Shown in pieces: positions 729 through 17,361 of a stretch of 64,000 bases of DNA. Numbering within the stretch: position 1 is the first letter of the stretch; every line of letters begins with the position of its first letter. The notes beneath the pieces are model-generated. The model saw nothing but the letters and a program-made list of their open reading frames with translations. It was not told the DNA's origin and did not search any database. The DNA is from Syntrophales bacterium. GTDB lineage: Bacteria > Desulfobacterota > Syntrophia > Syntrophales > UBA2185. The position numbers were made by a program, and so were the translations under genes. The stretch covers positions 14,810 to 78,809 of the forward strand of contig DATKLL010000148.1 in the NCBI GenBank assembly GCA_035542475.1, written 5' to 3'.

Positions 729-1931
729 TTACAGCTTGAGGCTGCCCACGCTCATGACCGTCTGGATGAGGGTAAGGACGATGAACCCCACCAGGAAGCC
801 CATAATGATGATGATGGCCGGCTCCAGAAGGGTCAGCGCACGCTTGACGCTGGTCTTGAACCTTTCGTCAAAGATCTGATAAATTTCGAAAAATATTTCC
901 TTCAAACTGCCGCTCTCCTCGCCGACGCGGATCATGTTAGGAATCATGGGCGGCAGAAAGGATACATGGGAAAAGGCATCGGCGATCTTCCGCCCTTCCC
1001 TGATTTGAACAGCCACCATTTCCAGACTCTCCCGGAGACTCCCATTTCGGATGAGGCCTGTCGAAAGGCGCAGGGCCTTGATGAATTCGACTCCCGCTTC
1101 CAGCATGGCGTGCATGGAATAGGAAAACCGGGACAACTCCAGGTTCAGGATGAGGGTGCGGGCCAGAGGCAGGCGGATAAGCCGGTCCTGCAGGACGGAG
1201 AACCGGACTTTTGCCGGATAGACCCTGCTCAGGATATAGAGGACGGAGAAAATCGACGCGACGATGAGCACGTTCTGCACACTCAGCCATTTACTGAGGG
1301 CAAACAGAAGCTTCGCCGCCGCCGGCAGGTTGTCCGCCGAGGCGCCGAAGATGCCCAGGAATCGGGGCACAATGAACTGAAAGATGACGAAGAAGGTCAT
1401 GATGCTCGCGACGATCAGAAAAGCCGGATAGACCATGGCGTCCCTGATTTCTCCCCGGAACTGGATCTGAAAGCGCAGATACTTGGCGATGCTTTCGAAA
1501 GCATCGGGCAGCCGTCCTATCTCCTCATTGTTGTGGATCATGTTGACGAGAAACTGACTGAACCGGCCCGTCTCCTGAAACGCCGCCGTGACGCTCTTTC
1601 CCGCCCGGATGTTGGTCAGTATGAAGGACAGGATTTCCTTCATTTCTTCCTTGTCCGCCGATTGGATCAGGATATCAACGGCCTTGTCGATCTGCATCCC
1701 CGATCGCAGGAGGGTGCTGAGTTCCCTGGCCATGTAGTAGGTGTCCTGGTGGTTGACCCGCCTTCTCCCGGCGAAGGTTTTTTCCCCACCCGCTTTTTCC
1801 GTGAGGTCGATGATGGTCAGTCCCCTCTCTTTCAGACGCGCCAGGGCATCCCTGCGGTCCGCGGCGGCGATTACGCCCCGTCCCTCCTTTCCAGTCTGAT
1901 CTATGCCGACATAGACAAAGTCGTTCAGCAA
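729..1931 (-). CDS. gspF: type II secretion system platform protein GspF (PilC family)
   Basis: 400-aa ORF (TTG start in the track) with two T2SSF-type repeats and three TM segments. Overlaps the gspE stop by 7 nt. Confidence 0.9.
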   Translation of the reverse strand: MLNDFVYVGIDQTGKEGRGVIAAADRRDALARLKERGLTIIDLTEKAGGEKTFAGRRRVNHQDTYYMARELSTLLRSGMQIDKAVDILIQSADKEEMKEILSFILTNIRAGKSVTAAFQETGRFSQFLVNMIHNNEEIGRLPDAFESIAKYLRFQIQFRGEIRDAMVYPAFLIVASIMTFFVIFQFIVPRFLGIFGASADNLPAAAKLLFALSKWLSVQNVLIVASIFSVLYILSRVYPAKVRFSVLQDRLIRLPLARTLILNLELSRFSYSMHAMLEAGVEFIKALRLSTGLIRNGSLRESLEMVAVQIREGRKIADAFSHVSFLPPMIPNMIRVGEESGSLKEIFFEIYQIFDERFKTSVKRALTLLEPAIIIIMGFLVGFIVLTLIQTVMSVGSLKL

Positions 1932-3598
1932 ACCCGGAGCACCTCCTCGATGGTGGTTAATCCTTTGATCACCTTGATCATGCCGTCCTCCCGGAGGAGG
2001 CGAAAACCGGGCCTGGCAGAGACCGATTGCCGGAAACCCTCGAGGGACAGTGTCTTCAGGAATACCTCCCTCAAATCATCCGTGTAATCGAAGAGTTCAA
2101 AGATGGCCGTCCGGCCCCGGTAACCGGTGCCGGCGCACTGCTGGCATCCCTCTCCCTTCATGTAGGCTGGGCCGTCGGGGATCAGTTCTTCGAAGCGTTT
2201 CATGATGCTGGAAACGCCGTATTCCTGAAGAAGATAAAGGGAAGGCGTTTCGGAACGGCTGCAGAACGGACAGTTCCGCCGGGCGATCCGCTGGGCCATG
2301 AGCCCCGTGACGGCGGCGTTGATGAGGTACCCCTCCACGCCCATCTCCATGAGGCGGAAGAGGCTGCTCGAGGCGTCGTTCGTATGGAGAGTTGAGAGAA
2401 CAAAGTGGCCTGTCAGGGCGGACTGGATGGATATCTCCGCCGTTTCCCGGTCCCGTATCTCCCCCACCATGATCACATCCGGGTCGTGGCGCAGGATGGA
2501 CCGCAGAGCCCCCGCAAACGTCAGGCCGATTTCGCTCTTTACCTGGATCTGATTGATCCCTGGAAGTTGATACTCTACGGGGTCCTCAGTGGTGATGATC
2601 TTCCTTTCCTCGCTGTTGAGCCGGGTCAGCATGGAATAGAGGGTGGTCGTTTTACCCGACCCTGTCGGGCCTGTGACCAGGAGCATGCCGTGGGGACGGC
2701 GGATCAGATCTGTGATCACGCGCCGATGATCCGCCTCCATGCCCAGATGCTCCAGATCGAAGCTGAGCTTTTCCCTGTAAAGGAGCCGCAGGACAACCCC
2801 CTCACCGGTGACGGTGGGAATCGTCGACACACGAATATCGAGAAGATGGGAGGCAAGCCGGGTGGAAAACTTGCCGTCCTGAGGAAGGCGCTTTTCCGCA
2901 ATATCCAGACCCGCCAGGAGCTTGACTCTTGACACCGCCGCCAGATAAAATTGTTCTTCGAGGACGTCCTTCTCGTGGAGGATGCCGTCGATCCTGAGTC
3001 TAACCCGGTAACGGTGCTCCGAAGACTCGATATGAATATCCGATGCCCGAAGCTCAACGGCCCGGCCAATGATATGATTGAGAAACTGGATGACCGGCGC
3101 TTCAAAGGCCATTTCCTTGAGCTTTTCCGCGTCCTGTTCGCCGTCGAGGGACACAAAGTCCTTGCCCATGTCACCCTTATAGCCCCGTACCAGTTCTTTG
3201 ACGGTTCCTTCTGGCGCCAGTACGGGGACAATCCTGAAGCCCGTCCGGCCGATGACGTAATCAAAAGTGCCATGCTGAAAAGGATCGTCTGTAGCGACGT
3301 AAAGAATGCGTCGCTCCCGGTCCGCTTTAAGAGGAAAAATCTGGTGGTTAAAGAGGAAGTTGAGATCCAGACGTTCTTCGAGGAACGGAAAGAGCTCGTC
3401 ATCCTGAAGCTCTTCGCCCTGATAAACGGTCAGATTCAAACCGGCGGCAAGCGCGTCGATGAGCTGCACCTCGGTGATGGCCCCCAACCGCAACAGGGCA
3501 CGGCCAATGTCTCCGCCGAGTTCTTTATGAAGTTTTTGGGCCTTCTCCAAAATCTCGGGCTTGATGGAAAAACGTTCTCTGAGGATCTGTTCGAGCAT
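1925..3598 (-). CDS. gspE: type II secretion ATPase GspE
   Basis: The track ORF extends to 3760, but its first 54 codons overlap gspG. ATG at 3598 lies 8 nt after the gspG stop and gives 557 aa starting MLEQILRERF. Has a GSPII_E N-domain, Walker A GPTGSGKTTT, and a C-terminal CPFC...CQQC tetracysteine motif. Confidence 0.9.
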   Translation of the reverse strand: MLEQILRERFSIKPEILEKAQKLHKELGGDIGRALLRLGAITEVQLIDALAAGLNLTVYQGEELQDDELFPFLEERLDLNFLFNHQIFPLKADRERRILYVATDDPFQHGTFDYVIGRTGFRIVPVLAPEGTVKELVRGYKGDMGKDFVSLDGEQDAEKLKEMAFEAPVIQFLNHIIGRAVELRASDIHIESSEHRYRVRLRIDGILHEKDVLEEQFYLAAVSRVKLLAGLDIAEKRLPQDGKFSTRLASHLLDIRVSTIPTVTGEGVVLRLLYREKLSFDLEHLGMEADHRRVITDLIRRPHGMLLVTGPTGSGKTTTLYSMLTRLNSEERKIITTEDPVEYQLPGINQIQVKSEIGLTFAGALRSILRHDPDVIMVGEIRDRETAEISIQSALTGHFVLSTLHTNDASSSLFRLMEMGVEGYLINAAVTGLMAQRIARRNCPFCSRSETPSLYLLQEYGVSSIMKRFEELIPDGPAYMKGEGCQQCAGTGYRGRTAIFELFDYTDDLREVFLKTLSLEGFRQSVSARPGFRLLREDGMIKVIKGLTTIEEVLRVC

Positions 3599-3606
3599 GG
3601 CTTTTT

Positions 3607-4005
3607 TCACCAGTTCGTTATGGATTTCCCCCCCAATGTTCCGTCCGGCCCAAGAGAGTACAGGTCGAAAGGCCCGTGCTCGCCGGGCGCCTTGTACCCG
3701 TAAGCTCTGTCCCAGGGGTCCTTCGGCACAACATTCTTGGAAAGGTAAGGCCCCCGCCACTTGAGATCTTTCGACTGGATTAATTCCTCCAGGTTCGCGG
3801 GATAGCGGTTCATGTCGAGCTTGAAGGACATGACGCTCGACGAGAGCATTTCGATCTGCGCCTTGGCAATTTCTTCCTTGGACCGCTCGAAGCGGCCCAT
3901 CAGGTTCGGCGCGATGAGAGAGGCGATAAAGCCGATGATGATTACCACGACCAGAATTTCGATCAGTGTGAATCCGGCATCTTTTTTTCGCTTTTTATTT
4001 TTCAT
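3607..4005 (-). CDS. gspG: major pseudopilin GspG
   Basis: Prepilin leader plus GFTLIEILVVVIIIG, and a C-terminus DPWDRAYGYKAPGEHGPFDLYSLGPDG typical of GspG. ATG at 4005 is preceded by AGGAG. The track ORF starts at 4035, inside the gspD 3' end. Confidence 0.85.
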   Translation of the reverse strand: MKNKKRKKDAGFTLIEILVVVIIIGFIASLIAPNLMGRFERSKEEIAKAQIEMLSSSVMSFKLDMNRYPANLEELIQSKDLKWRGPYLSKNVVPKDPWDRAYGYKAPGEHGPFDLYSLGPDGTLGGKSITNW

Positions 4006-4019
4006 GACACGCGCTCCTG

Positions 4020-6182
4020 CTAAAATTTCATCCATTTAAGTTCTTTCTTCAGTTCATCCGTAATCTTCGTGGCATCATCCGTTTTCGTTAGGATCGTCGG
4101 AGTTACCAAGACGAGCAACTCCGTCCTTTCCGTTGTATTTTCTGTGACCTTGAAAAGATTGCCGATCACAGGTATATCGCCCAGGAAGGGTATCTTGCTC
4201 TCTTTAACCGCCTTCCGCTCTCTCATCAGACCGCCCAATGCCACCGTTTGTCCATGAGCTGCGACTACGGATGTATTGATCCGGCGTATGAGAATGATTG
4301 GAGAATCGCTGATCCCGGTTGTCGGCGATAAATCCGAAACCTCCTGGGTCAGTTCCAGGGTGAGCAGACCTTCGGTATTGATCGTCGGTTTCACCCGCAG
4401 GATGATTCCGAGGCTCCGATACTGGATGGACCTCTGGATAGTTGGGTTTTCGGTAGTAGAGGAGGCCGTGGTCTGCTCGCCCGTGGCAATGGGTACATCT
4501 TGGCCTATCTGGATGATCGCCTCATGGTTGTCGAGAACGGTCAGACGAGGGGTCGAGAGAATGTTGGCCTTGTCTTTCGTCGCCAAGGCATTCAACATTG
4601 CCTTGAAATTCGCCGTGGCCGTGGCATAGCTGAAAGTCATTCCCAGGGTGTTGATGCCGAGGTTTCCGAGGGTTCCTCCCGTAATCGGACCGCCGTTAAT
4701 GGTATTATTGATATACCACTCTACGCCGTATTTCAGTTCATCCGTGAGACTGAGTTCGGCTACGGTCGCTTCGATGAGGACCTGCTTTGTCTGAGTGTCA
4801 AGCTGGCGGAGGATCTCGAGGTGTTGCCTGTAAACGGTGGGCGAACATATCATGATTACCACATTCTTATTGTTGTCAGCGGCGATTTTCAGGTTGGGCA
4901 GGGCGGCTGCGCTGAAGGCCGCACCGGAAGAAGCTGTCTTTCCTGAGGCCGCCTGAGTGATTGAGCCCCCAAATGTGGTCGACGTCTGGGCGTCGGCGAC
5001 CGGCGTCTGGAAACCCTGGCCCGTTGTCTGGTATCCGGTAGATGATGCCGAAGCTGGACGCGAGGATGCGTCTCTGCCCGGAGCAACTGTATCGGAACGG
5101 GGCGTTATGCCGTAAAGCGCCAGCACAGAATTGACAATGTCCGAAGCCCGTGAAAACTGCGGCGCAAATGTGTAGGCCTTTTCATCCGAGCCTGCCGCTT
5201 CCACTGTATCAAGTCTGTTTTTCCAATCGATGACATATTTCATGGTTGCCTCATCCGGGGCGATGACGAGGACGGCATTCATCTGCCGGATGGCTACAAA
5301 CATGGGACCAGGATCTTTCGGCGTCTTCGCCGCGGCGATCCCCATCCCTTCCAGCATTCTTGTCAATTGACTTATAAACTCTTCCGGCTGCCAGTAAATG
5401 AGACGGAGAAACACAACTTTCTTCTCATGGAGGGAAGGAACATCGAAGAAGTTTATGAAATCTATTATCTGTTGAATATTGTTGCTGCTGCCATGAAGAA
5501 TTAGAACGTTCTCCCGAGCGTAGGGTTTGATCTGGACACTTCCTCTCGACAGATCGGTGATCAGAGATTGAATCTCCGACACTCGCAGGAACCTGAGGGG
5601 AACAATTTGCAGGACATCGCCTCTTCTTTCGACTATTTCACGACCGGTCTGAATATCCGACGTTGGTCTTGGAGCAGGGGGTTTCTGCATGACATGAAGC
5701 GCGCCCGCTTTTTCTTCGACGATAAGGTCATGTTTTTCCAGGACGCCGACAACCATCTCCAGGGCCTTGTCCGCGGGGACAGGCTGAGGCGTGGACAGCG
5801 TGACAACCCGCTTGTCTTCCATCATGGCCTGATCCATGACGAAGGGGATCTTCATGGTTTCACCAATGACATAGATCACGAATTCCGGCAGTCGCATACG
5901 ATTCACATTGATCGATACGGGGCCTTCCGCCGCCTTCAGTTTCTGCACACTCAACGGCTGTCTTGGAGAAGGCGGGCGCGCAGGCGCTTTCTGATCGTAA
6001 GAAAGCGTTTTGACTGTCTCAGCGAGGGCTGCCTTGTCCTGCTCATTCGACGCCTCAGTGCCTTCCACAGACTTTTGTCTATGTTCAATCGTTATGGGCT
6101 TGTACACATAAGGGGCAGGTGCGCAACCGGGAAGCATCAGAAAGATAATTATCCATAGACTGTTAAGAACGTATCTTCTCAT
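4020..6182 (-). CDS. gspD: secretin GspD, predicted lipoprotein form
   Basis: 720 aa. Signal peptide with lipobox LMLPGC (Cys20), N0/N1-like domains, a 70-aa S/T/A/G-rich linker, and a secretin core (VLIEATVAELSLTDELKYGVEWY ... IPFLGDIPVIGNLFK). Confidence 0.9.
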   Translation of the reverse strand: MRRYVLNSLWIIIFLMLPGCAPAPYVYKPITIEHRQKSVEGTEASNEQDKAALAETVKTLSYDQKAPARPPSPRQPLSVQKLKAAEGPVSINVNRMRLPEFVIYVIGETMKIPFVMDQAMMEDKRVVTLSTPQPVPADKALEMVVGVLEKHDLIVEEKAGALHVMQKPPAPRPTSDIQTGREIVERRGDVLQIVPLRFLRVSEIQSLITDLSRGSVQIKPYARENVLILHGSSNNIQQIIDFINFFDVPSLHEKKVVFLRLIYWQPEEFISQLTRMLEGMGIAAAKTPKDPGPMFVAIRQMNAVLVIAPDEATMKYVIDWKNRLDTVEAAGSDEKAYTFAPQFSRASDIVNSVLALYGITPRSDTVAPGRDASSRPASASSTGYQTTGQGFQTPVADAQTSTTFGGSITQAASGKTASSGAAFSAAALPNLKIAADNNKNVVIMICSPTVYRQHLEILRQLDTQTKQVLIEATVAELSLTDELKYGVEWYINNTINGGPITGGTLGNLGINTLGMTFSYATATANFKAMLNALATKDKANILSTPRLTVLDNHEAIIQIGQDVPIATGEQTTASSTTENPTIQRSIQYRSLGIILRVKPTINTEGLLTLELTQEVSDLSPTTGISDSPIILIRRINTSVVAAHGQTVALGGLMRERKAVKESKIPFLGDIPVIGNLFKVTENTTERTELLVLVTPTILTKTDDATKITDELKKELKWMKF

Positions 6183-6277
6183 GTATCCTCTGCTTTCAAA
6201 TCATTCACTCTTTTGATACCTCTGATGCCCGATTGATATTATTTTTCTTATTACGCCGGCAATTAAACACGTCAATT

Positions 6278-6363
6278 GTCATGCCGGACTTGATCCGGCA
6301 TCCAATACCTTAGATAGATTCCCGCTCCCCGATCAGGTCAAGGGCAAGCTTCTCGGGAATGAC
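6278..6363. repeat. two REP-like palindromic elements (GTCATGCCGGACTTGATCCGGCATCC and ATTCCCG-N29-CGGGAATGAC)
   Basis: Inverted repeats read directly in the 231-nt gap between the slt-like gene and gspD. Same family as elements near 16.7, 56.3, 60.6-60.8 and 63.7 kb. Confidence 0.5.
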
Positions 6364-6413
6364 AGGATTGATATAACTATTTGCCAGGGTCATAATGTCG
6401 AACATTGGCATGG

Positions 6414-7022
6414 TTAATAACCTTTTAGCTTTGAGTAGTAATTCAAAACCTGTTTCACGTAATTTCTTGTTTCTCGGATTGCCGGAATCTCTTTCTTTTC
6501 AATGACTTTTTCCAGTCCGGCGTTGTAGGCGGCGAGGCTCAAAGGAAGATTGCCTTTAAGGGCATCGAGAAGCCTGCTCAGATACATGACGCCGCCGTGG
6601 ATGTTCGAAGCCGGCTCAAAGGGATCAACAACGCCCAGTTCTCTGGCAGTTTGCGGCATGAGCTGCATCAAACCCAAAGCCCCTTTAGGAGAAACGGCGC
6701 GGTTGTTGAAGTTCGATTCGACTTTGATTACAGCGCGTACGAGGTCAGGATCTACAGAGTATGTTGTACTTGCCTGAAGGATCAGCGATTCGTAGTCGCG
6801 CAATCTCAGACCAGCAGATAGAACCGGCGCGGAAGATCCGCCTTTCTTCGTCACCAATGGAAAGTGGACCTTTGTGCATCCTGGACCTGGTGTGTTTGTA
6901 TAATATCTTGTCCCATCTTCATCATGGAAGGAATAGACATCGGCGGCAAGAACCGGAAACGGGACCATGAACAGCCAGAGCGAGAAGGCGAGTGTCAGCA
7001 GCCGCGAGGCAAAGGTTATCAT
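6414..7022 (-). CDS. soluble lytic transglycosylase (SLT domain) protein with signal peptide
   Basis: Motif VIKVESNFNNRAVSPKGALGLMQLMPQTA ... AAYNAG with an N-terminal signal peptide. Start overlaps the upstream gene stop (ATGA). Confidence 0.85.
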   Translation of the reverse strand: MITFASRLLTLAFSLWLFMVPFPVLAADVYSFHDEDGTRYYTNTPGPGCTKVHFPLVTKKGGSSAPVLSAGLRLRDYESLILQASTTYSVDPDLVRAVIKVESNFNNRAVSPKGALGLMQLMPQTARELGVVDPFEPASNIHGGVMYLSRLLDALKGNLPLSLAAYNAGLEKVIEKKEIPAIRETRNYVKQVLNYYSKLKGY

Positions 7023-7861
7023 TGGCCGCCTCCCTGAGCATTATCATCCGCTTTTGTAATCGGGGGATAGGGTCTCCTCCGTCCGGGCTTAGAGGGTGGA
7101 GGTGCTGAATCCTTCGGCAGCGCTTGAACAGTCTGAAGCGGGGCTTCTGGAAACGCTTGAGCATAGAGTGTCAAATCTTTTTCATCCTTACCGTTTCTTA
7201 ATCTTACGGAACGGGAATCGATACGGGCAATAACTGAACCATCCGGCAGAGACTGGCTTGTCTCCAGAATGGTCAGGTTGCCGACGTCATCTTTAAATAC
7301 AGCCTTTTTGTGAACGCCTCCCAGAATGCCGATAAGTAAAGGGTTCCCGCCTGAAAGATTCTTCATCTCAACCTGCCCGGATGCGGGTGACGTGGGTGAA
7401 ATGGAAGATCCATAAACATTAAATGCCTTCTTCTCATTTCCTCTCTTGAGCATTACTTGCTTGCTGCTCACAGCGGCAATTCGGAATCCATCAATCATTC
7501 GGTCTCCTGTAGCACCATTCTTGACAGAGCCCGTGTATTCACGGAAGATAGCCTTCATCCCGGCTTTTTCCTGGACAATGCCGATAAGGCTATAAGGATT
7601 ATCGGGCATGGGGGTCTGTACGTAATCTTTATCATTATAACTGCCCGATGCAGCAAAAATGTTTCTCTCTCCGATGGCCGTCCCCTCGCTCTTTCGCCCG
7701 ACTTCCATCGATTTCACCTCCGGCGGCGCCTTTGCGTCTGCCGACACCGGCGCCGGAACGGGCACGGGCTCCTGCATATCCTTTGGCATCCCCGCCAGAA
7801 AAAAAGCGATAACGGCTGCCATAACGATAAAAACCATATCGGGAAGATAGCGACTAATCAT
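7019..7861 (-). CDS. GspC/PilP-like inner-membrane secretin-interacting protein (tandem HR/PilP-like modules)
   Basis: N-terminal TM, a Pro-rich linker and an ERNIF motif. Two similar beta-rich modules follow: YSLIGIVQEKAGMKAIFREYTG...FRIAAVSSKQVMLKRGNEKKAFNV and NPLLIGILGGVHKKAVFKDDVG...VIARIDSRSVRLRNGKDEKDLTL. Position lies between the gspM-like gene and the secretin. Confidence 0.5.
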   Translation of the reverse strand: MISRYLPDMVFIVMAAVIAFFLAGMPKDMQEPVPVPAPVSADAKAPPEVKSMEVGRKSEGTAIGERNIFAASGSYNDKDYVQTPMPDNPYSLIGIVQEKAGMKAIFREYTGSVKNGATGDRMIDGFRIAAVSSKQVMLKRGNEKKAFNVYGSSISPTSPASGQVEMKNLSGGNPLLIGILGGVHKKAVFKDDVGNLTILETSQSLPDGSVIARIDSRSVRLRNGKDEKDLTLYAQAFPEAPLQTVQALPKDSAPPPSKPGRRRPYPPITKADDNAQGGGQ

Positions 7862-8403
7862 AGTTCCATCCGGAAGGCGCTTACCGTCATGGAAAAAGTC
7901 ATCCCCTGGCCGCTTACGGAAATCTCCATGGCCTTGACCGCGAGGGTCTTTTTATTTTCCTTCATGCTTTTCAACAACTCGACGAAAGATCGGGCACTGC
8001 CCGCAAGTCTGAGCACAACGGGCACTTCACTGATCTTCTTGCCGATGGCCGCTTCCGGCATTTCGAATCCCAGGACGGTCAGACCCTTGTCTTCCGAGTA
8101 TTTCAAGATGGTAGCCAGCATTTCTGACTGGATATCAGAGACACGGGCCTCCCGCGGATACAGGGCGGTACGCGCCTTATCGAGGTCTTGCGTGACCCCC
8201 GCACTTTGTGCCTGCTGCGCCTGCTCGAGAATCCGGGCTTTCAGCATGTAAGTCTCCTGCTGAAGAGCAAGATGAGCCCGTCTATCATTGACTGCCGCAT
8301 GAAGCGGATAAATGAGGAACCGCAAGAGCGCAAGGATGAGGATAATATATACACCAATGGTTTTCACCCAGTTATTGCTGTCGATCGCGAATAATCCCTT
8401 CAT
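7858..8403 (-). CDS. GspM/PilO-like bitopic membrane protein
   Basis: 181 aa with one N-terminal TM (IGVYIILILALLRFLIYPL), a coiled-coil and a C-terminal alpha/beta domain. Translationally coupled on both sides. Assigned by architecture and position only. Confidence 0.5.
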   Translation of the reverse strand: MKGLFAIDSNNWVKTIGVYIILILALLRFLIYPLHAAVNDRRAHLALQQETYMLKARILEQAQQAQSAGVTQDLDKARTALYPREARVSDIQSEMLATILKYSEDKGLTVLGFEMPEAAIGKKISEVPVVLRLAGSARSFVELLKSMKENKKTLAVKAMEISVSGQGMTFSMTVSAFRMEL

Positions 8404-9650
8404 GGCCTTATCTCCAGCAACAAAGCACAGTTGTATATTCCCGTGGAGGTCTCTTTCATCGGTGATCCCTTAAGGCTCACCTTCCCGATCCGTTCACTTT
8501 TACCGAGTTGCTTGATGACTGAAAGGGGATCACGGGCCGACACCGTCATCTCAACTATGCCATTATTGACAACCAGGCTTTTCACGTAGCTTTCCTCTTG
8601 AAGATCGGCAGCGAGAACATCGAGGACTCTCAGGGGCGTGACAGCTCCCTTCATTCTTGCATCGAAATCCTTTATCGTTTCCGGGTTTCCCTGCGCCATG
8701 CCGCCACGTTCCAGGACGTTTATCTCCTTCTCGATTGATATTGATTTGTCCTTCAAATCAGTCAGGGCTTTGTCATAATCCTTAAGAGTCAAAAAAAGCA
8801 TCAGTCCATAGGCAAGAACAGTATAGAGGGCAAAGCGAAGCAGGAGTGTTCTGTTGAGATATAGAGTCGCTATCCCTGTCTTCAAGCGGAAGGGCTTGAG
8901 AGAAATTTCAGCAACCGCGTTGAGGAACGGCGGATAATCGATTCTCTGAAGCCCCTTCACACGGGATATGAGGGAAGACGGCACGTCCACTGAGGTATTG
9001 CCGTAGAAACTGATTTCCTTAATTTCGGAAAAACCATTAGCAAGGCCCGCGAGGAACCGCTCCAGGTCTGCTTTCGAGAAATCGGCGGCCGGGTATGAAG
9101 CTGCATCCATGAATCGTCCCTCTCCACAGGCAATGACCTCTACCTTTGAGCCGGATGGATAAATGAAAATCCCGGATGGCGAAGAAAGAAAAGCAATATC
9201 TTCGGGAATGACATAACGGAATGGAAAAGACGCCCGCAAACGTTCCACAGGTTCCCGTTGCCATGCCCATATATCCAGCATGACGTGAGTGTTATACGTC
9301 TCGGCAATCCTGCAGTGAAAAGAGCAATCGGCTATGGGGAAAAGGGTCGGGATTTCCATTTCCACCGCACGACGGAGCTTATCCTTCTTCATCGGAGGAT
9401 AACGCTTCCTTAAGCGGATAGCATTACTTCTCCCTACAATAAGAGTCCGCCGCTGCATCCCCCCTTTCATGGGCTTAAGCCCATCAAGAGGACCTGAATA
9501 AAGCAGCTCTGCGTATCCCTCCCCGGCCATCTGCCCGATCATCTGGTAGACGTCCACGCCTTTTTCTCCCCAATATGCGGCTTGCCACTTAGCCACCCGA
9601 CTATTCCTCCTGCCAGTAGTGAATGAAATAGGGATAAAAAGTACCTTCAC
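8400..9650 (-). CDS. GspL-like (PilM/PilN-type) assembly protein
   Basis: 416 aa: a cytoplasmic N-domain, one TM (LLLRFALYTVLAYGLMLFLTL) and a periplasmic C-domain. Lies between the gspK- and gspM-like genes. The GTG start in the track overlaps gspK by 50 nt, so an internal ATG (M37) may be the real start. Confidence 0.5.
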   Translation of the reverse strand: MKVLFIPISFTTGRRNSRVAKWQAAYWGEKGVDVYQMIGQMAGEGYAELLYSGPLDGLKPMKGGMQRRTLIVGRSNAIRLRKRYPPMKKDKLRRAVEMEIPTLFPIADCSFHCRIAETYNTHVMLDIWAWQREPVERLRASFPFRYVIPEDIAFLSSPSGIFIYPSGSKVEVIACGEGRFMDAASYPAADFSKADLERFLAGLANGFSEIKEISFYGNTSVDVPSSLISRVKGLQRIDYPPFLNAVAEISLKPFRLKTGIATLYLNRTLLLRFALYTVLAYGLMLFLTLKDYDKALTDLKDKSISIEKEINVLERGGMAQGNPETIKDFDARMKGAVTPLRVLDVLAADLQEESYVKSLVVNNGIVEMTVSARDPLSVIKQLGKSERIGKVSLKGSPMKETSTGIYNCALLLEIRP

Positions 9651-10524
9651 CTATCGTTAGACCCGCGCTGATTTTATAAAGGCTGCGGGGACTGCCGGTG
9701 CGAACGATAATATCCATATAGTATGACGGCGCAAACCATCCCTTCTGTTTCTCCAGATAAAGCATCTTGCCCGTTAACGCGACAAGTTCCGGCATGGCTC
9801 TTATTGTCTTTCTTGCGACATAGTCCCTTATCTTCGCCACCTTGCTGTCATCGATATTAAGAAATGCCTTCAAGACGGAATCACCGGCCGTATTTGGATT
9901 AAAGCCCGTGGTCGGCAGGATCGTCACCGCAGAAGCCAGTCGACTGAAAAGATCGGCGTCAACGCCCCTTATGAGTTTCATCTCTTCCAGGTACTGAAGA
10001 TCATATTTACGGGGCGTATAGGGAAACCCGTGGTTTCTGTAATATGGCGCCTTGGCCCCGTTTACTCGGGCCATATCACCCTGGCTGATCCAGTCCAGAA
10101 AGCTATCCGTAAATATAGCGCCCCGCTCGGAGTCTGTTTCATTGGTGACAAGCCTTTGCAGGGCCTCCTGGTTTCGCGCTGTGAGAGACAGGCGTCCGTT
10201 GCTGTCCTGAGCCATTACAAAGACGCCGTCAGAGATCATCACTTCCGATCCGTCAAGGGGTATGGATTTCAGATCAGTAATATCACTCTGCGCAATCACT
10301 ATTCCATTCTCCGTAATTTGCCCTGTAAGCATGATGTAGATAAGTGTGTCATAGGCTGAACGGGTCTTGATGATGGCCTCGGCCTTGTCACGCAGCCCCT
10401 CTGAGGTTCTTATATGCTCTTTGACCAGCCAGTTGAAACCCAGGCCAATGGCAAGAATCACCGCCGCCAGAAGCGCGATCAGAATGGTCACGGAGCCTCG
10501 CTCATTGCTCGTATAGTTTTTCAT
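9601..10524 (-). CDS. gspK: minor pseudopilin GspK
   Basis: 307 aa with an N-terminal hydrophobic segment (GSVTILIALLAAVILAIGLG). The C-terminal region LIRGVDADLFSRLASAVTILPTTGFNPNTA matches the GspK SAM-like/HhH pattern. Confidence 0.7.
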   Translation of the reverse strand: MKNYTSNERGSVTILIALLAAVILAIGLGFNWLVKEHIRTSEGLRDKAEAIIKTRSAYDTLIYIMLTGQITENGIVIAQSDITDLKSIPLDGSEVMISDGVFVMAQDSNGRLSLTARNQEALQRLVTNETDSERGAIFTDSFLDWISQGDMARVNGAKAPYYRNHGFPYTPRKYDLQYLEEMKLIRGVDADLFSRLASAVTILPTTGFNPNTAGDSVLKAFLNIDDSKVAKIRDYVARKTIRAMPELVALTGKMLYLEKQKGWFAPSYYMDIIVRTGSPRSLYKISAGLTIGEGTFYPYFIHYWQEE

Positions 10525-11242
10525 AGCCTCGCTTCCACTGAGAATTCACATGCATTGCGTACATGAACATTCTGTTTTCACCACCTCGCGTGTAGTCGAC
10601 TCGAACCAGCAGGGGGAGCTGTTTTGTCTCAGCTCCTTCAAATATACTCCGCCATTTATGCTTTTCATCTCGAACATCATAACCGTAAAATTCGAATTGA
10701 ACCCTGTCAGCACCTTCGAGGATTTTGACGGATTGACCTTTCCGATAGGCGCCCGACGCAAGGTCTTCCTTGAGATCTTCGAACGACTTGGCGTAAACGG
10801 GGAGTTCATAATAAACCAGACTTATTTTCCCATCTGCCGTCACTTCTTTTCTCATCCAGACGACGACGGGGAGATCCCCGGCAAAAGGCGCCAGAGTCAC
10901 AAACGAGATCCCCTCCTGATTTCCTCTGAAATAAGGAAACCAGCCCTGTGCGCTCGTATTCACATAATAATCAATGGTTGAATGAAAACTCTTATCTGTC
11001 CAGATTTTCTGAGCGTAATCCCAGAAACAGAGCCCTTTATCAACAAGTCCCTGGTATTGCATCAACCCCTGATTCAAGGCCATTCCCCCTAATAGGAGCA
11101 TTGCTGAAAAAATGGCCATGGCCACAACGACCTCTATCAGGCTGTAACCAGGAGCGGTGCGTCTCTCACCTCCATGATAACGGCCGTGAACGAAAGACAT
11201 GGATATGATACTCCCTGATCGACTTTTTAAATTCCAAGACAA
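10502..11242 (-). CDS. minor pseudopilin, GspJ-like
   Basis: Prepilin-type N-terminal methylation motif PGYSLIEVVVAMAIFSAMLLLGG. Size and position fit GspJ. The real start is probably an internal ATG (about 11200). Confidence 0.6.
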   Translation of the reverse strand: MSWNLKSRSGSIISMSFVHGRYHGGERRTAPGYSLIEVVVAMAIFSAMLLLGGMALNQGLMQYQGLVDKGLCFWDYAQKIWTDKSFHSTIDYYVNTSAQGWFPYFRGNQEGISFVTLAPFAGDLPVVVWMRKEVTADGKISLVYYELPVYAKSFEDLKEDLASGAYRKGQSVKILEGADRVQFEFYGYDVRDEKHKWRSIFEGAETKQLPLLVRVDYTRGGENRMFMYAMHVNSQWKRGYEKLYEQ

Positions 11243-11597
11243 AATCGACTCGATATAGAAATAGATCGTGTGAGAGATTTCTTCTGACCATTACCCCGCT
11301 TGCAGAAGCAGTCCCTGACCGGTCCCGATTATTCTGAGCAAGAAGGTGCGATACCCATTTCATAATCACGCCATCTCCCATGTCTTCCGTTCCAGATTGT
11401 CTTTCCAGCTCTATGATCTTCAGGAGACTTCCTGCCTGCAAAAGCTTTGCGGACAGGAGATTGACCTGGTTCACTCTCTCCATGTGGTTGAATCCCACTC
11501 TGAAAAGATACATGGCGGCTGCGATGCTTGCTGTCAGGATGAGGCCGGCAATCAATACCTCCAGGACGAGAAATCCCCGCGAATCGTCTCCTCTCAT
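11166..11597 (-). CDS. minor pseudopilin, GspI-like
   Basis: N-terminus RGFLVLEVLIAGLILTASIAAAMYLF, a degenerate prepilin motif with conserved Glu. 143 aa, and position fits GspI. Confidence 0.55.
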   Translation of the reverse strand: MRGDDSRGFLVLEVLIAGLILTASIAAAMYLFRVGFNHMERVNQVNLLSAKLLQAGSLLKIIELERQSGTEDMGDGVIMKWVSHLLAQNNRDRSGTASASGVMVRRNLSHDLFLYRVDFVLEFKKSIREYHIHVFRSRPLSWR

Positions 11598-11995
11598 GTC
11601 CCTCTTCTTTCAAGGGAAAGATCACCCAGCGGGGCTTTAACCACAAGGTGCTGGACCACGTCGTCCACGCTCAATACAATTATGCCCCCGGACGATGTTC
11701 CATTCGGAAAAAAAACGATGGACTCAGAGAGATGGACATTTATCCCGCCGAATATTTTCTTTCCCCCATCGACTGTCATATTACCGTCCTGCGATGAAAT
11801 AACCTTCCTTTCACTGTAAAGGAAAGCGTCCCGCCTCAATTCGGAAACGTAAGCCATGACCTCCTGCACGCGCAGAGAGGAATTGTACGTAGCATACATG
11901 CCGTATGAAACCGGCAGGGCAACCGACAACACCATCCCCACGAGAATGACAACAATGAGGAGCTCGATGACTGTGAATCCTCTTTTTTTACACAT
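11594..11995 (-). CDS. minor pseudopilin, GspH-like
   Basis: MCKKRGFTVIELLIVVILVGMVLSVALP is a classical prepilin cleavage/methylation motif. First gene of the operon, with a GGAGAG RBS about 12 nt upstream. Confidence 0.7.
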   Translation of the reverse strand: MCKKRGFTVIELLIVVILVGMVLSVALPVSYGMYATYNSSLRVQEVMAYVSELRRDAFLYSERKVISSQDGNMTVDGGKKIFGGINVHLSESIVFFPNGTSSGGIIVLSVDDVVQHLVVKAPLGDLSLERRGT

Positions 11996-12322
11996 GCAAT
12001 TGAATCTCTCCGCAGCAAGCTAAGGAAATGCACTCGCTGACGAATTCACGATGATTAGGCACGAAATCGAAACCGTAGATGTCTGCACATGTTCAATGGA
12101 ATTGCCAGAGGAAAAGTTTTCGAAACTCGATACTTATCGGGACAAGCACTCTAACTTTAGCAAAAGTTGAAGCATCAGTTCCCTGTATGACCATATATGA
12201 CTGTAATTTTAAATGCCGTCATCCATGTTAATCCTTCGTCGGTCAGGCATGTCCATTATACCAGCGCATTTATAAACGTCTTCTGTTGTGTTGTTATGAC
12301 AAAATGATGATGTTTTTGTTAA
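11843..12322. repeat. direct repeat copy A (gspH 5' 153 nt plus about 330 nt of upstream leader/promoter)
   Basis: Aligns by eye with 15170..15537 at roughly 85-90% identity where aligned. Copy A has two extra segments of about 41 and 71 bp. Confidence 0.85.
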
Positions 12323-12438
12323 TTAGTGATAACATGCCAATATTATGCAAGTTATTGCATAATTTTCTGAAGGCGGGCAAGGACATCTCCCGGCACAGGA
12401 GGAATAAGAACATGAGGCGAGCGGCAGATTCTCTGATC

Positions 12439-14952
12439 TTATTTTTTCTCTAATCGGTTTCGCCGCATTCCAAATACCGCTACCGCAGCCAGGGCCGGCA
12501 CCAGCACCAAAAACCCCACATAACTGAGGGCAGGAACAGGCGAGGATGTCGAGGCATTGATGGCGGCTTCGAGGTTGATACGTGTTTTGCCGTAGTTGAT
12601 CTTGACATCCGTCAAAGGATCCCCCGTGCTGACGAGAATCGACCGCACATCAGCCGGTGTAAGAAAATAACCCAACTTTTCCTTCGCAGCATTTTGCAGT
12701 ATAGCAGCGGCGCCCGCCGCATAGGGAGAAGCCGCCGAAGTGCCGCCAAAATTGCTCACGTAAGAACCCCCTTTAGCGGTCGTATAGGCCATGTGCGACG
12801 GCGCTAAAAGCCCGAGAATCGGCGCTGTGTTGGAATAGGGCGTTTCCCGGTCCGGTGTAATCGAGTAAGACCAGGCAACTGGATTTGGACTGCAAGAGGC
12901 ATGCGTCCCCTGATTGGGCGCACAGGATGATGGATCCACGCAAAACCCCAGAGTCCCCAGAGACGCATCAAAAACAGCCCCCACAGCGATCACATGCGAT
13001 ATGCAGGATGGCCAGGCGATTGCATTACAATAGCCGTTATTTCCCGAAGACACAAAAATCGTAATGCCCGCGGCGACGGCATTGGCGGCAGCTGAGGTCA
13101 TGGCGGTGGAGTAGCTGTCGCAGGCCGTTGTGAACTGTCCGCTTCCCATGCTCGTGTTAATGACCATGATCGGATAATTCGGATTGTCATTCTGGTGCGT
13201 GATGCACCACTCCCAACCCGCAATAATGTCCGAAGTATAGGCCTCCCCGGTCGAGCCGTGAGTGACTTTGACGGCATAGAGTTTCGCGCCGTAGGCCACC
13301 CCGCCGATATAATCACCCGTCGTACCCGTATCGCCCGCAGCGATGCCCGCACAGCTTGTGCCGTGGCCGTTTACGTCCATCGGATCAGCATCCTGGACAG
13401 CGGGGTTGTTATACTCCCCGCCAAAGTCGTAGCCGCCAAGCACCTTGGCGCTAAGCTTCGGGTGCGTGTAGTCGATGCCCGTATCCACAATGGCTATGGC
13501 CACGCCCTGGCCGTTGTAAGTGCCGCGAACGGCAGAGGCATCAATCAGCGGGATCCCCTGGGCGGTGTGAATCTGAAGCTTACGATCCAATTCAATGGAG
13601 AAGACGTCGCCATGTTGGCGCAGATCTTCAAGTCCTCCACGGGTCACCTCAGCGGCAAATCCGGCGTGGTAATCAAAAAAGTTCGTGACTTTTACCCGGT
13701 TTGCGTTTAACCCCATTAAAACCCGTTGCTGTATCCACCTGACATTTTGCCGGCGCGTCACCCTGCCCTCCGGCCGTTTCATGTCCTCCCGTCCGGGATC
13801 CGCCAGGTTCACGATAACATAGGTCGTGGCCCGGCTGCTATTAAAGCCGCGAAGGATGCCCGCCTCGTCAATGAGCCGCGCCTGGGCACAGACCGGCAGG
13901 GGCCGGCCAAGCGCAAGGATTCCGAGGAATAAAAGTAAAACCATACAGAGTATCGCAGGGCGCACCTTTGCAAAACGAATATTCATCAAGCGCCATCGGA
14001 TCGACAGCCCCCCTCCCAAGGTGAGCCAAAGAACGAGCGGTATAAGCGATTGCGCTGTGAGGTGGACCGCTGTCGCCACCGGGAGAAAATCCATCAATCC
14101 GTATCCGACAACAATGACATTGAAGACGCGAAGAACAAGATGCAGCGCCGCTAAAATAACCGTTCCGATGAGCAGCGCTCTGGTTTTTGACATTCGTGTC
14201 ATGCCGTCGTCGGCAAGAACAAGTGCGCCAAAGACTACAAGGTTGACGGTGTGGTAATAGATTTCATGGTGATGGGCAAATATAATTTTGGCCCCGAAAA
14301 TTGAAAAAATGAAACTCAGCAATGCATCACTGGAGATAATATAGCCCTGATTGAGCGGAATCCAGATGATAAAGAGGGTACTCGACGCAACAGCAAATCC
14401 GACGACAAATCTTCCGATCGCGCCAGGCTTTTTTGTCTTGTCGCAGAAGCGGACCCAGACATGGCAGGTGACCAGTACAATCAAAATCGTCCAGATCTGA
14501 CCGATGTAGGCATGAAAATAATTGAACCATGACGGTACGGCCGAGCCGAGGGCGATGGTCAAGCCCAGGCGGAGAGTATTGGCCGCGGTGAGAAAAAGCA
14601 TACCGGCGAGCAGACCTTGAATTCTGTCCGCAGGCGTCGCCGGAAAAGAAAAGAGAAAAACCGCAAAAATAAGGATCATGAAAACCGGTGTGCATTCCGG
14701 GACGATCCATACGGATAATCCGTCTGCAAAAAGATATTCCCCCCTGGCAACGATTGGCATACCGAAAACACCGAGCAGCAGACTTGTGAGTTTGGCTGTC
14801 AGTCGATTGACCGGCGCGTAAACGGGGTCGGGAAGCAGACTTGCCGCAACATAAAAGACAAGAGCGTTAAGTGAAAATCGGAAGAGAAGGCGCCTGTAAC
14901 CCGTACGCTGAGTTTCAACTTTTCCTTCTCGGGACACAACCATCACCTCCAT
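12439..14952 (-). CDS. fusion protein: exosortase/archaeosortase-like membrane domain + I9 propeptide + S8 subtilisin-like protease + PEP-CTERM-like C-terminal sorting signal
   Basis: 837-aa ORF. Exosortase signature residues are in context: Cys87 (WIVPECTPVF), Arg128 (AANTLRLGL), His147 (NYFHAYIGQ). There are about 9 TM segments up to residue 320. Residues 323-356 read as an internal signal-peptide-like segment, MNIRFAKVRPAILCMVLLLFLGILALGRPLPVCAQA. The S8 triad is AIVDTGIDY / NGHGTSCAG / GGTSAASPYAAG. The tail is SSPVPALSYVGFLVLVPALAAVAVFGMRRNRLEKK. Confidence 0.8.
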   Translation of the reverse strand: MEVMVVSREGKVETQRTGYRRLLFRFSLNALVFYVAASLLPDPVYAPVNRLTAKLTSLLLGVFGMPIVARGEYLFADGLSVWIVPECTPVFMILIFAVFLFSFPATPADRIQGLLAGMLFLTAANTLRLGLTIALGSAVPSWFNYFHAYIGQIWTILIVLVTCHVWVRFCDKTKKPGAIGRFVVGFAVASSTLFIIWIPLNQGYIISSDALLSFIFSIFGAKIIFAHHHEIYYHTVNLVVFGALVLADDGMTRMSKTRALLIGTVILAALHLVLRVFNVIVVGYGLMDFLPVATAVHLTAQSLIPLVLWLTLGGGLSIRWRLMNIRFAKVRPAILCMVLLLFLGILALGRPLPVCAQARLIDEAGILRGFNSSRATTYVIVNLADPGREDMKRPEGRVTRRQNVRWIQQRVLMGLNANRVKVTNFFDYHAGFAAEVTRGGLEDLRQHGDVFSIELDRKLQIHTAQGIPLIDASAVRGTYNGQGVAIAIVDTGIDYTHPKLSAKVLGGYDFGGEYNNPAVQDADPMDVNGHGTSCAGIAAGDTGTTGDYIGGVAYGAKLYAVKVTHGSTGEAYTSDIIAGWEWCITHQNDNPNYPIMVINTSMGSGQFTTACDSYSTAMTSAAANAVAAGITIFVSSGNNGYCNAIAWPSCISHVIAVGAVFDASLGTLGFCVDPSSCAPNQGTHASCSPNPVAWSYSITPDRETPYSNTAPILGLLAPSHMAYTTAKGGSYVSNFGGTSAASPYAAGAAAILQNAAKEKLGYFLTPADVRSILVSTGDPLTDVKINYGKTRINLEAAINASTSSPVPALSYVGFLVLVPALAAVAVFGMRRNRLEKK

Positions 14953-15160: not shown

Positions 15161-15322
15161 TCAATGACTGGAAACGTAAGCCATGACTTCCGGCGCGCGC
15201 ATAGGGGCATTGCACGTGGCATACATGCCGTATAAGACCGGTAGGTCAACCGACAACACAATCCCCACGAGAACGACGACAATGAGGAGCTTGATTACTG
15301 TGAATCCTCTTTTTTTACACAT
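15161..15322 (-). pseudogene. truncated gspH paralogue (first ~50 codons only), part of repeat copy B
   Basis: MCKKRGFTVIKLLIVVVLVGIVLSVDLPVLYGMYATCNAPMRAPEVMAYVSSH* compared with GspH MCKKRGFTVIELLIVVILVGMVLSVALPVSYGMYATYNSSLRVQEVMAYVSEL... The RBS-containing 41 bp of copy A is missing. Confidence 0.75.
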
Positions 15323-15537
15323 GCAATTCACGATGATTAGGCACGAAATCGGAACCGTAGATCTCTGTGTATGTTCAATGGAAGCGCCGGAGGCAGAGTT
15401 TTCGAAACCTGAGATTTGTTGGAACAAGCACCGTTATCCATGTTAATTCTTCGTCGGTCAGGCATTTCCGTTATACCAGCGCGTTTATAAACATCTTCTG
15501 TTGTGTTGTTATGACAAAATAATGATGTTTTTGTTAA
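15170..15537. repeat. direct repeat copy B (see 11843..12322)
   Basis: Same orientation as copy A. The two copies flank 12323..15169. Confidence 0.85.
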
Positions 15538-15771
15538 CGAATAATATTGCCTTGATATCAGGTACTTATTCCGTTGATAAAGAGGTGCTTACCGTTGCGG
15601 TGATTTAACACCGAGAGGAGGAAACCGTCGTGCATCCTGTATCAACCACGTTTTGAGCAAGCTTCACAAAATGTTCACATGATTTTAATCTGAATAAAAC
15701 AATTGTGATATAAGAAAGCTAGCTTCAAGGAGCGCCGAAATTTTTTGTAATTGAAACCGAGGAGGAGGCTG

Positions 15772-16554
15772 ATGATGAAAAAGATGCTCTGCGTTATGGT
15801 GTGGGTAGTGATGATTTGCTGCGCAGGAACGGCTATTGCCGGGACAGACGTTGAAAAGATTTTGAAAACAACATTCCCCGATTTTGCATTCGATTCTGTA
15901 TCTCCGTCGCCGGTAAAAGGGATCTATGAAGTAGTAGGGGGGAAGAGAATATTCTACTTTGCACCGCAAGAAGGCATCCTCATCCTGGGACAGATGTTCG
16001 ACAAAACAAAGCGGAATCTGACCGCTGAACGGATGAAAGAGATATCGGCCAAGGCCGATGAGCAGATGGCCGAGATGGCCAAGGACTTACCTCTCGATAA
16101 AGCAATCAAGACCGGTAACGGACCGCACGTAGTGATAGAGTTCACCGATCCCGACTGCCCTTACTGCCGCAGGGCGGCACAGTTCTTTGAGTCTCGGACT
16201 GATGTGACCAAATACACCTTCTTCACTGCCCTCCCAATGCACCCGGATGCCAAGAACAAGGTGCGTTATATACTCTGTCAGAAGGAGAGAAGCAAGGCAT
16301 TCGAAGAGGTGATGAAAGGCAAAATCGATGGCGGCAAGTATGAGACCTGCACAAACGCTGAAGTCGAAGACCTGATCAAGCTTCATGAGTCCGCGGCTGC
16401 AAAGCTTGGCGTCTCAGGGACGCCATTCTTCATCATTTACGGCAGACCGGTTTCCGGCGCCGATATCCCAAAACTCGAAAGTCTGCTGGGCGAGAAAGTC
16501 ATCAACGGTAAAGAGGATAAACCTGTCAATCCCACTGTGCCGCAAGCCAGATAA
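15772..16554 (+). CDS. DsbC/DsbG-family periplasmic thiol:disulfide interchange protein
   Basis: Signal peptide MMKKMLCVMVWVVMICCAGTAIAG and thioredoxin-fold active site FTDPDCPYCRRA. GGAGGAGG RBS before ATG 15772 (track ORF starts at 15751). Confidence 0.8.
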   Translation: MMKKMLCVMVWVVMICCAGTAIAGTDVEKILKTTFPDFAFDSVSPSPVKGIYEVVGGKRIFYFAPQEGILILGQMFDKTKRNLTAERMKEISAKADEQMAEMAKDLPLDKAIKTGNGPHVVIEFTDPDCPYCRRAAQFFESRTDVTKYTFFTALPMHPDAKNKVRYILCQKERSKAFEEVMKGKIDGGKYETCTNAEVEDLIKLHESAAAKLGVSGTPFFIIYGRPVSGADIPKLESLLGEKVINGKEDKPVNPTVPQAR

Positions 16555-16752: not shown

Positions 16753-17361
16753 TTAAGATACTCTCCCTTTGACCACCCGAACCCCCCCTAACATGGCCAA
16801 TCCAGACCCCAAGAGCCACACCACGCCCGGAATTGGAACTACTGGATTAGGAGGATTATTTTCTCCCATTTCCCTTTCTACTAAAAAACCCGAGATGTTC
16901 CTAAGGTTTCCCTCGTCATTCCACATCCAGGCGTGCTTCCTATATTTGCTCCATATGGCAAGGTGTTGTTCCGAATCGTGGCCATAATAATCGTTAGGTT
17001 CCCCCTTCGACCATCTGTGATAATTCCAGGGTTCATTTGTCGCCCAATGCCATTTGTTCGATCCATCCTGATACCCACCGATCCAGAACTCGCCGTTAAC
17101 CCCCTGCAGTAATTTTTGTACATATCTCTGTTCCGTCTTGCTTGTAATGGTGGCGAGATGGTAAGAGCTGCCCCAACTCGCGACTTCCGCTGCTGCATCG
17201 TCCCAGGACACGCCCTTTTTAAACACGAGAATGTACTCATTGTCGCCGGAGAATGTGGAATCGGCCAGGGGACCGACGGTCATGCAGGCGACACTCTGAG
17301 CCGCTACTGCGCAACAAATGATAATGACCAGAACGATTGTGACGATTACTTTCTTTTTCAT
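16753..17361 (-). CDS. secreted C-type lectin domain protein with PEP-CTERM-like (PIP variant) C-terminal anchor
   Basis: Signal peptide MKKKVIVTIVLVIIICCAVAAQSVA. CTLD hallmarks are WIGGYQDG...WHWATNEPWNYHRWSKGEPNDYYG...WMWNDEGN (EPN and WND motifs). The tail is NPVVPIPGVVWLLGSGLAMLGGVRVVKGRVS. Confidence 0.75.
   Translation of the reverse strand: MKKKVIVTIVLVIIICCAVAAQSVACMTVGPLADSTFSGDNEYILVFKKGVSWDDAAAEVASWGSSYHLATITSKTEQRYVQKLLQGVNGEFWIGGYQDGSNKWHWATNEPWNYHRWSKGEPNDYYGHDSEQHLAIWSKYRKHAWMWNDEGNLRNISGFLVEREMGENNPPNPVVPIPGVVWLLGSGLAMLGGVRVVKGRVS

Follow-up and report, generated by a model that had tools for sequence, protein, structure and literature searches.

An XrtH-like exosortase joined in one reading frame to a pro-subtilase with a candidate sorting tail

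Can a membrane-bound sorting enzyme and the protein that it sorts be encoded as a single polypeptide? The question is raised by a 64,000-nucleotide stretch of contig DATKLL010000148.1 (positions 14,810 to 78,809; hereafter, the window), in which one open reading frame (ORF) of a Smithella-like bacterium runs for 837 codons, in one frame and free of stops throughout, from an exosortase-like membrane enzyme into the precursor of a subtilase (S8) protease (Table 1). An earlier note on this DNA, made from the sequence alone, had taken the ORF for an enzyme-cargo fusion of a kind not described before, and we likewise found no paper, in the literature searched, that describes a fusion between an exosortase and either its target or an S8 protease. 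The interpretation that we favor, and hold to be fairly probable, is that this one gene is a dedicated exosortase system, comprising an enzyme plus its own protease substrate, whose product is split by signal peptidase and secreted. The sequences concerned are already in public databases, where their names are generic, and the novelty lies in recognizing how the parts are combined.

Enzyme, protease, and tail

The N-terminal part of the fusion is recognizable as an exosortase: the NCBIfam signature for exosortases and archaeosortases (TIGR04178) matches residues 83 to 169 at 37.2 bits (cut-off, 23), an interval spanning Cys87, Arg128, and His147. These are the residues in which the earlier note had recognized a catalytic signature. 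In a family alignment of 40 sequences (~30% identity), no more than nine columns are invariant, and these three residues together with Glu86 account for four of them. Archaeosortase ArtA has a comparable set close to the outer face of the membrane, consisting of a conserved Cys, a conserved Arg, and one further basic residue (Cys173, Arg214, and Arg253; PMC9263693), to which Cys87, Arg128, and His147 of the predicted site correspond. The best-scoring NCBIfam subfamily is XrtH (TIGR04177; 70.4 bits, residues 21 to 172), whose curated cut-off of 86 bits is passed by the relatives P0007 (107.8 bits), P0033 (102.9), P0021 (92.9), P0011 (87.8), P0012, and P0060; the relative P0006 scores 56.2 bits. 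On sequence grounds, we place the window protein within an XrtH-like clade, as a divergent member that falls short of a certified equivalog. Its own Pfam matches do not include PF09721, although P0154, which is identical in sequence, and orthologs have this family on record. A search of 1.8 billion representatives returned 65 clusters at E < 1e-30, most of them proteins of 300 to 370 amino acids (aa) that match residues ~20 to 312 and carry the name "exosortase H" in NCBI and IMG; the PDB contains no protein related in sequence to the exosortase part.

The additional transmembrane (TM) helices that had been noted up to residue ~320 are present. They belong to a second membrane module without a match in Pfam or NCBIfam, and a separate known domain was ruled out on that ground. 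When the family alignment is cut in two and its halves are compared by hhalign, the match has a probability of 86% (E, 5e-6; score, 39; 120 columns), against control scores of 12.6 ± 2.9 (maximum, 22.6) for shuffled columns and 13 for the reversed profile. The alignment pairs Arg275 of the second module with Arg128, and the Cys-bearing loop is absent from the second half. In the AlphaFold2 (AF2) model, residues 20 to 310 have predicted local distance difference test (pLDDT) values above 90, and the helix pattern occurs twice. Because the profile-profile match and the repeated helix pattern agree, it is probable, though not proven, that the second module is a degenerate, Cys-less, and noncatalytic tandem duplicate of the exosortase core. 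In this respect the window enzyme differs from the XrtH model (158 positions), which it exceeds by this Cys-less repeat of ~145 aa.

The second half of the fusion is a protease precursor. Pfam Peptidase_S8 (PF00082) matches residues 481 to 779 (2.9e-40), and the Asp/His/Ser triad, earlier described as intact, is invariant across fusions (Asp490, His530, and Ser739), as is the oxyanion residue Asn638; the domain is rich in cysteines. The I9-type propeptide proposed earlier is less clear-cut in the window protein itself, where Inhibitor_I9 (residues 406 to 462) reaches a weak 18.2 bits against a cut-off of 21.2. It is backed by the ortholog P0006, which passes at 23.2 bits, and by structure: the best Foldseek matches of the AF2 model are unautoprocessed pro-subtilisins, aligned over 445 to 490 columns with the propeptide included, and subtilisins alone appear among the 50 matches listed for the whole model.

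The protein ends in a Pro-containing motif, P-V-P-A-L-S-Y-V-G (12514-12540), followed by a TM helix and the basic cluster RRNRLEKK. When the last 44 residues are compared with 18,950 NCBIfam models, only IPTL-CTERM (TIGR04174) and midcut-by-XrtH (20.4 bits; cut-off, 45) match, both of them linked to XrtH; the tail of P0011 scores 16.9 bits with IPTL-CTERM. Pro805 and Leu809 are invariant in all nine aligned sequences, and Val806, Pro807, Ala808, and Gly813 are invariant in a four-sequence alignment, with Ala at position 806 in some close orthologs. The motif reads P-[V/A]-P-A-L-x-Y-x-G in orthologs and VPALSxxG in P0011 and P0021. From its sequence, the most fitting label for the tail is a PAL(S/G) variant of an IPTL-CTERM-like signal that stays below threshold. 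The earlier description of a PEP-CTERM-like tripartite tail therefore stands as to its design (motif, TM helix, and basic cluster), whereas PEP-CTERM identity is ruled out, since no PEP-CTERM model matched and the only matches were to XrtH-linked ones.

Table 1. Features of the fusion gene and its neighborhood (window coordinates), with the ratio of nonsynonymous to synonymous substitution rates (dN/dS) of the parts of the fusion
Feature	Residues	Coordinates	Strand	Evidence	dN/dS
XrtH-like exosortase/pro-S8 protease fusion ORF (837 aa)		12439..14952	-	Domain matches; identical protein P0154, orthologs P0006 and P0155-P0157	
Exosortase catalytic core	18-172	14437..14901	-	TIGR04178 and XrtH matches; invariant C87/R128/H147; pLDDT above 90	0.21-0.40
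Predicted catalytic codon	Cys87	14692-14694	-		
Predicted catalytic codon	Arg128	14569-14571	-		
Predicted catalytic codon	His147	14512-14514	-		
Second membrane module	176-318	13999..14427	-	hhalign of halves; helix pattern in AF2 model	0.31-0.42
Internal signal-peptide-like segment (junction)	319-357	13882..13998	-	Hydropathy peak 2.54; AxA motif	Looser
I9-like propeptide	358-470	13543..13881	-	Inhibitor_I9; Foldseek pro-subtilisins; dN/dS	0.14-0.26
Subtilase (S8) catalytic domain	471-795	12568..13542	-	PF00082; invariant triad; dN/dS	0.11-0.13
Putative tripartite sorting signal (tail)	796-837	12442..12567	-	IPTL-CTERM and midcut-by-XrtH matches; conserved motif	Looser
Type II secretion cluster (pseudopilins H/I/J/K, L/M-like, SLT, secretin, GspG, GspE, GspF)		729..11995	-	Pfam	
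dsbC-like disulfide isomerase gene		15751..16554	+	Pfam DsbC_N, Thioredoxin_2	

The fusion and its relatives in other genomes

Whether the two halves belong together is first a question of gene integrity, since a lost stop, a frameshift, or a chimeric metagenome assembly could have joined two adjacent genes. The junction does have the appearance of a new secreted protein beginning there, the window bears signs of local rearrangement a short way upstream of the gene, and broken versions occur in some relatives. Against this, the frame shows no stop or frameshift near 13.99 kb, where the earlier note had advised looking, and the same continuous frame recurs in full-length orthologs (824 to 827 aa, 73 to 77% identity) from at least four independent assemblies of different samples (P0006, P0155, P0156, and P0157). 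These orthologs and the identical P0154 derive from a Smithella sp. metagenome-assembled genome (MAG) in NCBI, whose copy is named "S8 family serine peptidase," and from contigs in JGI and Logan, the longest of which reach 116 kb. The search for the same architecture that the note had suggested also recovers the distant fusions P0011 (944 aa) and P0021 (915 aa), each ~31% identical to the window protein, with the same order of parts and an added DUF11 domain. Both halves of the fusion are under purifying selection, as measured by pairwise dN/dS among the four intact orthologs (Table 1), with the relaxed values at the junction being usual for signal peptides; and even at the decayed locus L001, the exosortase ORF does not end before the signal peptide but continues to the beginning of the propeptide. 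Given the independent orthologs, the distant fusions, and the dN/dS values, an assembly artefact is excluded for practical purposes, and we assign it only a vanishing probability.

The likely start of the gene lies slightly inside the ORF. The segment at 14935-14952, with the first ATG, contains the probable ribosome-binding site (GGAGG) of a GTG five codons further on; because this GTG (14937, codon 6) is positioned 8 nucleotides 3′ of the GGAGG and orthologs begin with MSRK..., it is probably the true start, which would give a product of 832 rather than 837 aa.

A search with the N-terminal part, which returned only proteins of 196 to 375 aa, had seemed to say that the fusion is not conserved. 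That view was abandoned when tblastn revealed three of these relatives to be decayed copies retaining S8 and tail remnants in other frames. In L001 (7600-8200), the read-through described above is followed by S8 fragments in other frames; in L002 and L003, the sequence jumps from residue ~191 to the tail (8200-8272 in L002); and in L006 (5475-5734) and L012 (Smithella sp. M82), residues ~6 to 167 are left along with small S8 and tail pieces. L004 and L005 encode a stand-alone enzyme of 313 to 328 aa among unrelated neighbors. The large internal deletions and frameshifts differ between Smithella-like populations, and, where a contig extends far enough to include them, as observed for L001, the secretion genes are intact. 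Read from these sequences, the fusion is old in the Smithella-like clade and was lost independently more than once.

The bearing of the protease on the enzyme emerges from relatives in which the two are separate. A scan of GTDB genomes with a six-sequence alignment yielded 17 loci, 16 of them with a long-form XrtH (L013 to L028) and one being the decayed L012; the genomes concerned are MAGs of Nitrospirota and Desulfobacterota as well as those of Geobacter argillaceus and Syntrophobacter, and a single genome can contain as many as four paralogs. At 10 of the 16 long-form loci, an adjacent ORF ends in P-A-[L/V]-[S/G] plus a TM helix and a basic cluster, and at 8 of those 10 it abuts or overlaps the XrtH start. 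These tail-bearing neighbors are mutually unrelated, including InlB-B-repeat proteins (L016, L018, L021, L022, and L027), a sedolisin-like protein (L015), and an S8 protease encoded by its own gene (L017). Because the same tail sits on unrelated proteins beside unfused XrtH homologs, we regard it as a sorting signal; and because the tail of the fusion matches only XrtH-linked models, its enzyme scores best with XrtH, and unfused XrtH neighbors share the tail, the protease is read, with good support, as cargo, in keeping with the enzyme-cargo pairing proposed from the sequence at the outset.

The same observations bear on a contrary view, in which the exosortase-like region serves as no more than a polytopic anchor or a scaffold devoid of activity, with a second anchor in the C-terminal helix, so that the protein would be a doubly anchored periplasmic protease without any cargo role. 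The XrtH and IPTL-CTERM scores under their curated cut-offs, as well as the clearly noncatalytic second module, are what such a protein would lead one to expect. We nonetheless consider it distinctly unlikely: the family alignment shows no variation at Cys87, Arg128, or His147, the dN/dS of the core is 0.21 to 0.40, and a tail motif common to unrelated proteins beside unfused homologs is the hallmark of a sorting signal.

Joining of a protease to a long-form XrtH seems not to have been a single event. The S8 protease that L017 encodes in a gene of its own, downstream of XrtH, shares 63% identity with the corresponding domain of P0011, whereas the window S8 domain is ~29% identical to this L017/P0011 lineage and has its nearest free-standing relative in P0161 (52% identity), which has an N-terminal signal peptide of its own and an AVPAMG tail. 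Since the two S8 domains belong to different lineages, each with its own free-standing relatives, the sequences indicate that long XrtH enzymes probably acquired a protease partner by fusion on more than one occasion.

Two further observations concern the long-form enzymes. One MAG (MFD01828.bin.2.72) encodes at least four paralogs (L016, L018, L026, and L027), and the gene upstream of each ends in GPALS, a TM helix, and RRK, constituting an array of one-to-one pairs. A second class of fusions, ~645 to 695 aa in length (P0033, P0041, P0060, P0065, P0075, P0078, P0092, P0101, and P0106, from Geobacteraceae MAGs and metagenomes), combines a long-form XrtH with an internal signal peptide and a pair of periplasmic domains, between which lies a linker rich in Pro and Ser; these proteins have neither a C-terminal sorting tail nor a Pfam match.

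The junction and the route of the protease

The signal-peptide-like segment that had been noted between the two halves has all of the expected parts: a basic n-region (RWRLMNIRFAKVR), a 17-residue hydrophobic core (h-region), a Pro-containing break, and PLPVCAQA/RL, in which the slash marks the site of an AxA signal peptidase I motif (the junction in full is RFAKVR - AILCMVLLLFLGILALG - RPLPVCAQA/R). The n-region, the h-region, and small residues at -3 and -1 are present, as judged by eye, in 16 of 16 fusion proteins read, and the pattern is also kept in the ~645- to 695-aa class that lacks a sorting tail. Since a plain TM linker would not need an AxA motif and all 16 fusions keep one, signal peptidase I probably splits the chain here. 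A second translation start at Met323 was considered and rejected; as there is no upstream Shine-Dalgarno sequence or other evident internal ribosome-binding site, and Met323 is not conserved (Ile in P0156), separate translation of the protease is unlikely.

Arg/Lys-rich segments are found at the N-terminus and in the loops at 169 to 181, 248 to 258, and 316 to 327, and the Cys87 loop is acidic. Because hydropathy, loop charges, and the AF2 helices agree, we infer a topology with four spanning helices per module, in which Cys87, Arg128, and His147 would lie towards the outer face, the protease outside, and the final RRNRLEKK inside.

An alternative is that the chain stays whole, with the signal-like segment serving as a ninth TM helix and the anchor being processed in cis or on a neighbor, leaving a membrane-bound periplasmic protease. 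A continuous and conserved frame, the absence of an internal Shine-Dalgarno sequence, and a nonconserved Met323 are all compatible with this, and the fusion would thereby keep the enzyme near its substrate. Yet an uncleaved linker needs no AxA after a helix breaker, unfused cargo homologs have ordinary cleavable signal peptides, and the neighboring type II secretion system (T2SS) would be left without an obvious role, such that we view the unsplit chain as rather improbable. The same standing is given to a more specific proposal, also doubtful, that the protein is an unsplit, single-turnover self-processor and that long-form XrtH enzymes have repeatedly captured their neighbors as polyproteins (at least two S8 lineages plus the ~645- to 695-aa class). 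The earlier note had offered 1:1 stoichiometry or processing in cis as possible gains from the fusion; in view of the conserved AxA at the junction, 1:1 stoichiometry appears more likely than obligatory in-cis processing.

Under the favored interpretation, in which the chain is split, events would proceed as follows. The chain would enter the inner membrane through about eight TM helices, with its N-terminus and basic loops remaining cytoplasmic, and residues 319 to 357 would act as an internal signal peptide that threads the pro-protease into the periplasm, where signal peptidase I would cut after AQA357 and leave enzyme and cargo in equal amounts. Held by its C-terminal helix, the pro-protease would fold with the help of DsbC and autoprocess its I9 propeptide. 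The exosortase Cys would then attack the PALS motif and remove the anchor, so that the protease would be released or transferred to an acceptor, and the adjacent T2SS would carry it to the cell surface or into the medium.

The last of these steps is suggested by the genomic neighborhood. The type II secretion cluster lies directly downstream of the fusion gene, without a terminator-like site between the latter and the first pseudopilin gene, and dsbC lies upstream; the order of dsbC, fusion gene, and full type II secretion cluster is shared with L001 and L007 to L010. The T2SS is thus the likely route of the protease across the outer membrane, and a cysteine-rich protease fits a disulfide isomerase as neighbor. 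Weak evidence points to a promoter-like site at 15164-15137. Direct repeats, 84 to 91% identical, flank the fusion gene (15170-15546 and 11843-12331), the upstream one being a shortened second copy of the 5′ portion of the first pseudopilin gene and of the region preceding it, and dsbC is inverted in the window relative to every related locus; repeats and inversion could reflect either a local rearrangement or an assembly problem. Further upstream, a gene on the minus strand (16753-17361) encodes a 202-aa protein with a C-type lectin domain, ending in VVPIPGVVWLLGSGLAMLGGVRVVKGRVS, a PEP-CTERM/VPLPA-CTERM-like tail with sub-threshold matches only. The window contains no second exosortase that we could find, and the lectin-domain gene is absent from related loci. 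Nor does the 64-kb window, or any of the loci L001 to L010, encode another protein with the PAL(S/G) tail of the fusion.

Several points weigh against a split and secreted enzyme-cargo system. The XrtH score of the window protein (70.4 bits) lies below the curated cut-off of 86, the IPTL-CTERM score of its tail (17.0 bits; E, 0.005) lies below 20.5, and four of the six other tails tested match no XrtH-linked model. A signal peptidase cut at an internal signal peptide situated after eight TM helices is deduced from the motif alone. The linkage to T2SS genes is confined to the Smithella-like clade, and L011, a distant fusion, has no secretion genes nearby. The gene is also dispensable, given its decay in several relatives (L001, L002/L003, L006, and L012). 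Lastly, the literature search yielded no biochemistry for the window protein or for any XrtH.

Related systems and implications

Fusion of an exosortase to a protease is not in itself without precedent. XrtE (TIGR04162, "exosortase E/protease, VPEID-CTERM system") is naturally fused to a protease domain, and its partner is an intramembrane protease of the CPBP/CAAX type, an accessory rather than cargo and without a sorting signal. The nearest counterpart of the window protein is XrtH with its IPTL-CTERM (IPTLxxWG) targets: XrtH is the best subfamily for the enzyme part, and V-P-A-L-S-Y-V-G resembles I-P-T-L-x-x-W-G, the differences being that the window protein is under both cut-offs and that enzyme and target form one polypeptide. 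An example located at the cell surface comes from Methylomirabilis, whose S-layer protein bears an IPTL-CTERM signal (PMC8671808).

Dedicated sorting systems are known in which one enzyme serves a single adjacent target encoded by a separate gene (Haft; PMC3237569; bioRxiv 10.1101/2023.06.07.544157). The one-to-one relation of enzyme and cargo is the same here, and unfused relatives of the window protein show the cargo gene abutting XrtH; unlike in those systems, the window protein, P0011, and P0021 are fused through the signal peptide of the cargo. For the proposed secretion route, the closest parallel is VesB of Vibrio cholerae, which requires a GlyGly-CTERM signal, rhombosortase, and a T2SS (PMC6219818). 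VesB, too, is a serine protease whose C-terminal signal has three parts; it is processed by a sorting enzyme in the membrane and exported by a T2SS, a route that the gene arrangement suggests for the window protein. The two cases differ in that the sorting enzyme of VesB is a rhomboid, the signal is GlyGly-CTERM, the protease is of the S1 type, and the genes are separate.

Exosortases are widespread, with targets known almost entirely from comparative genomics, and current annotation gives proteins of the kind described here no other name than "S8 family serine peptidase" or "exosortase family protein." A natural enzyme-target fusion provides Rosetta-stone evidence that the XrtH-like clade acts on P-A-L-S/G tails, as well as a one-gene construct in which cleavage, the roles of Cys87, Arg128, and His147, and the transfer acceptor could be studied. 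Should the tentative idea of polyprotein capture prove true, the family would be one of natural enzyme-substrate fusions, and expression of a single gene could reveal both the chemistry of exosortases and their acceptor. A pseudo-dimeric mode of action is suggested for these short exosortases by the Cys-less second copy of the core. The passage of exosortase cargo across the outer membrane has been called an unknown step (PMC7726332), and for this step, the link to dsbC and the type II secretion genes offers a concrete route.

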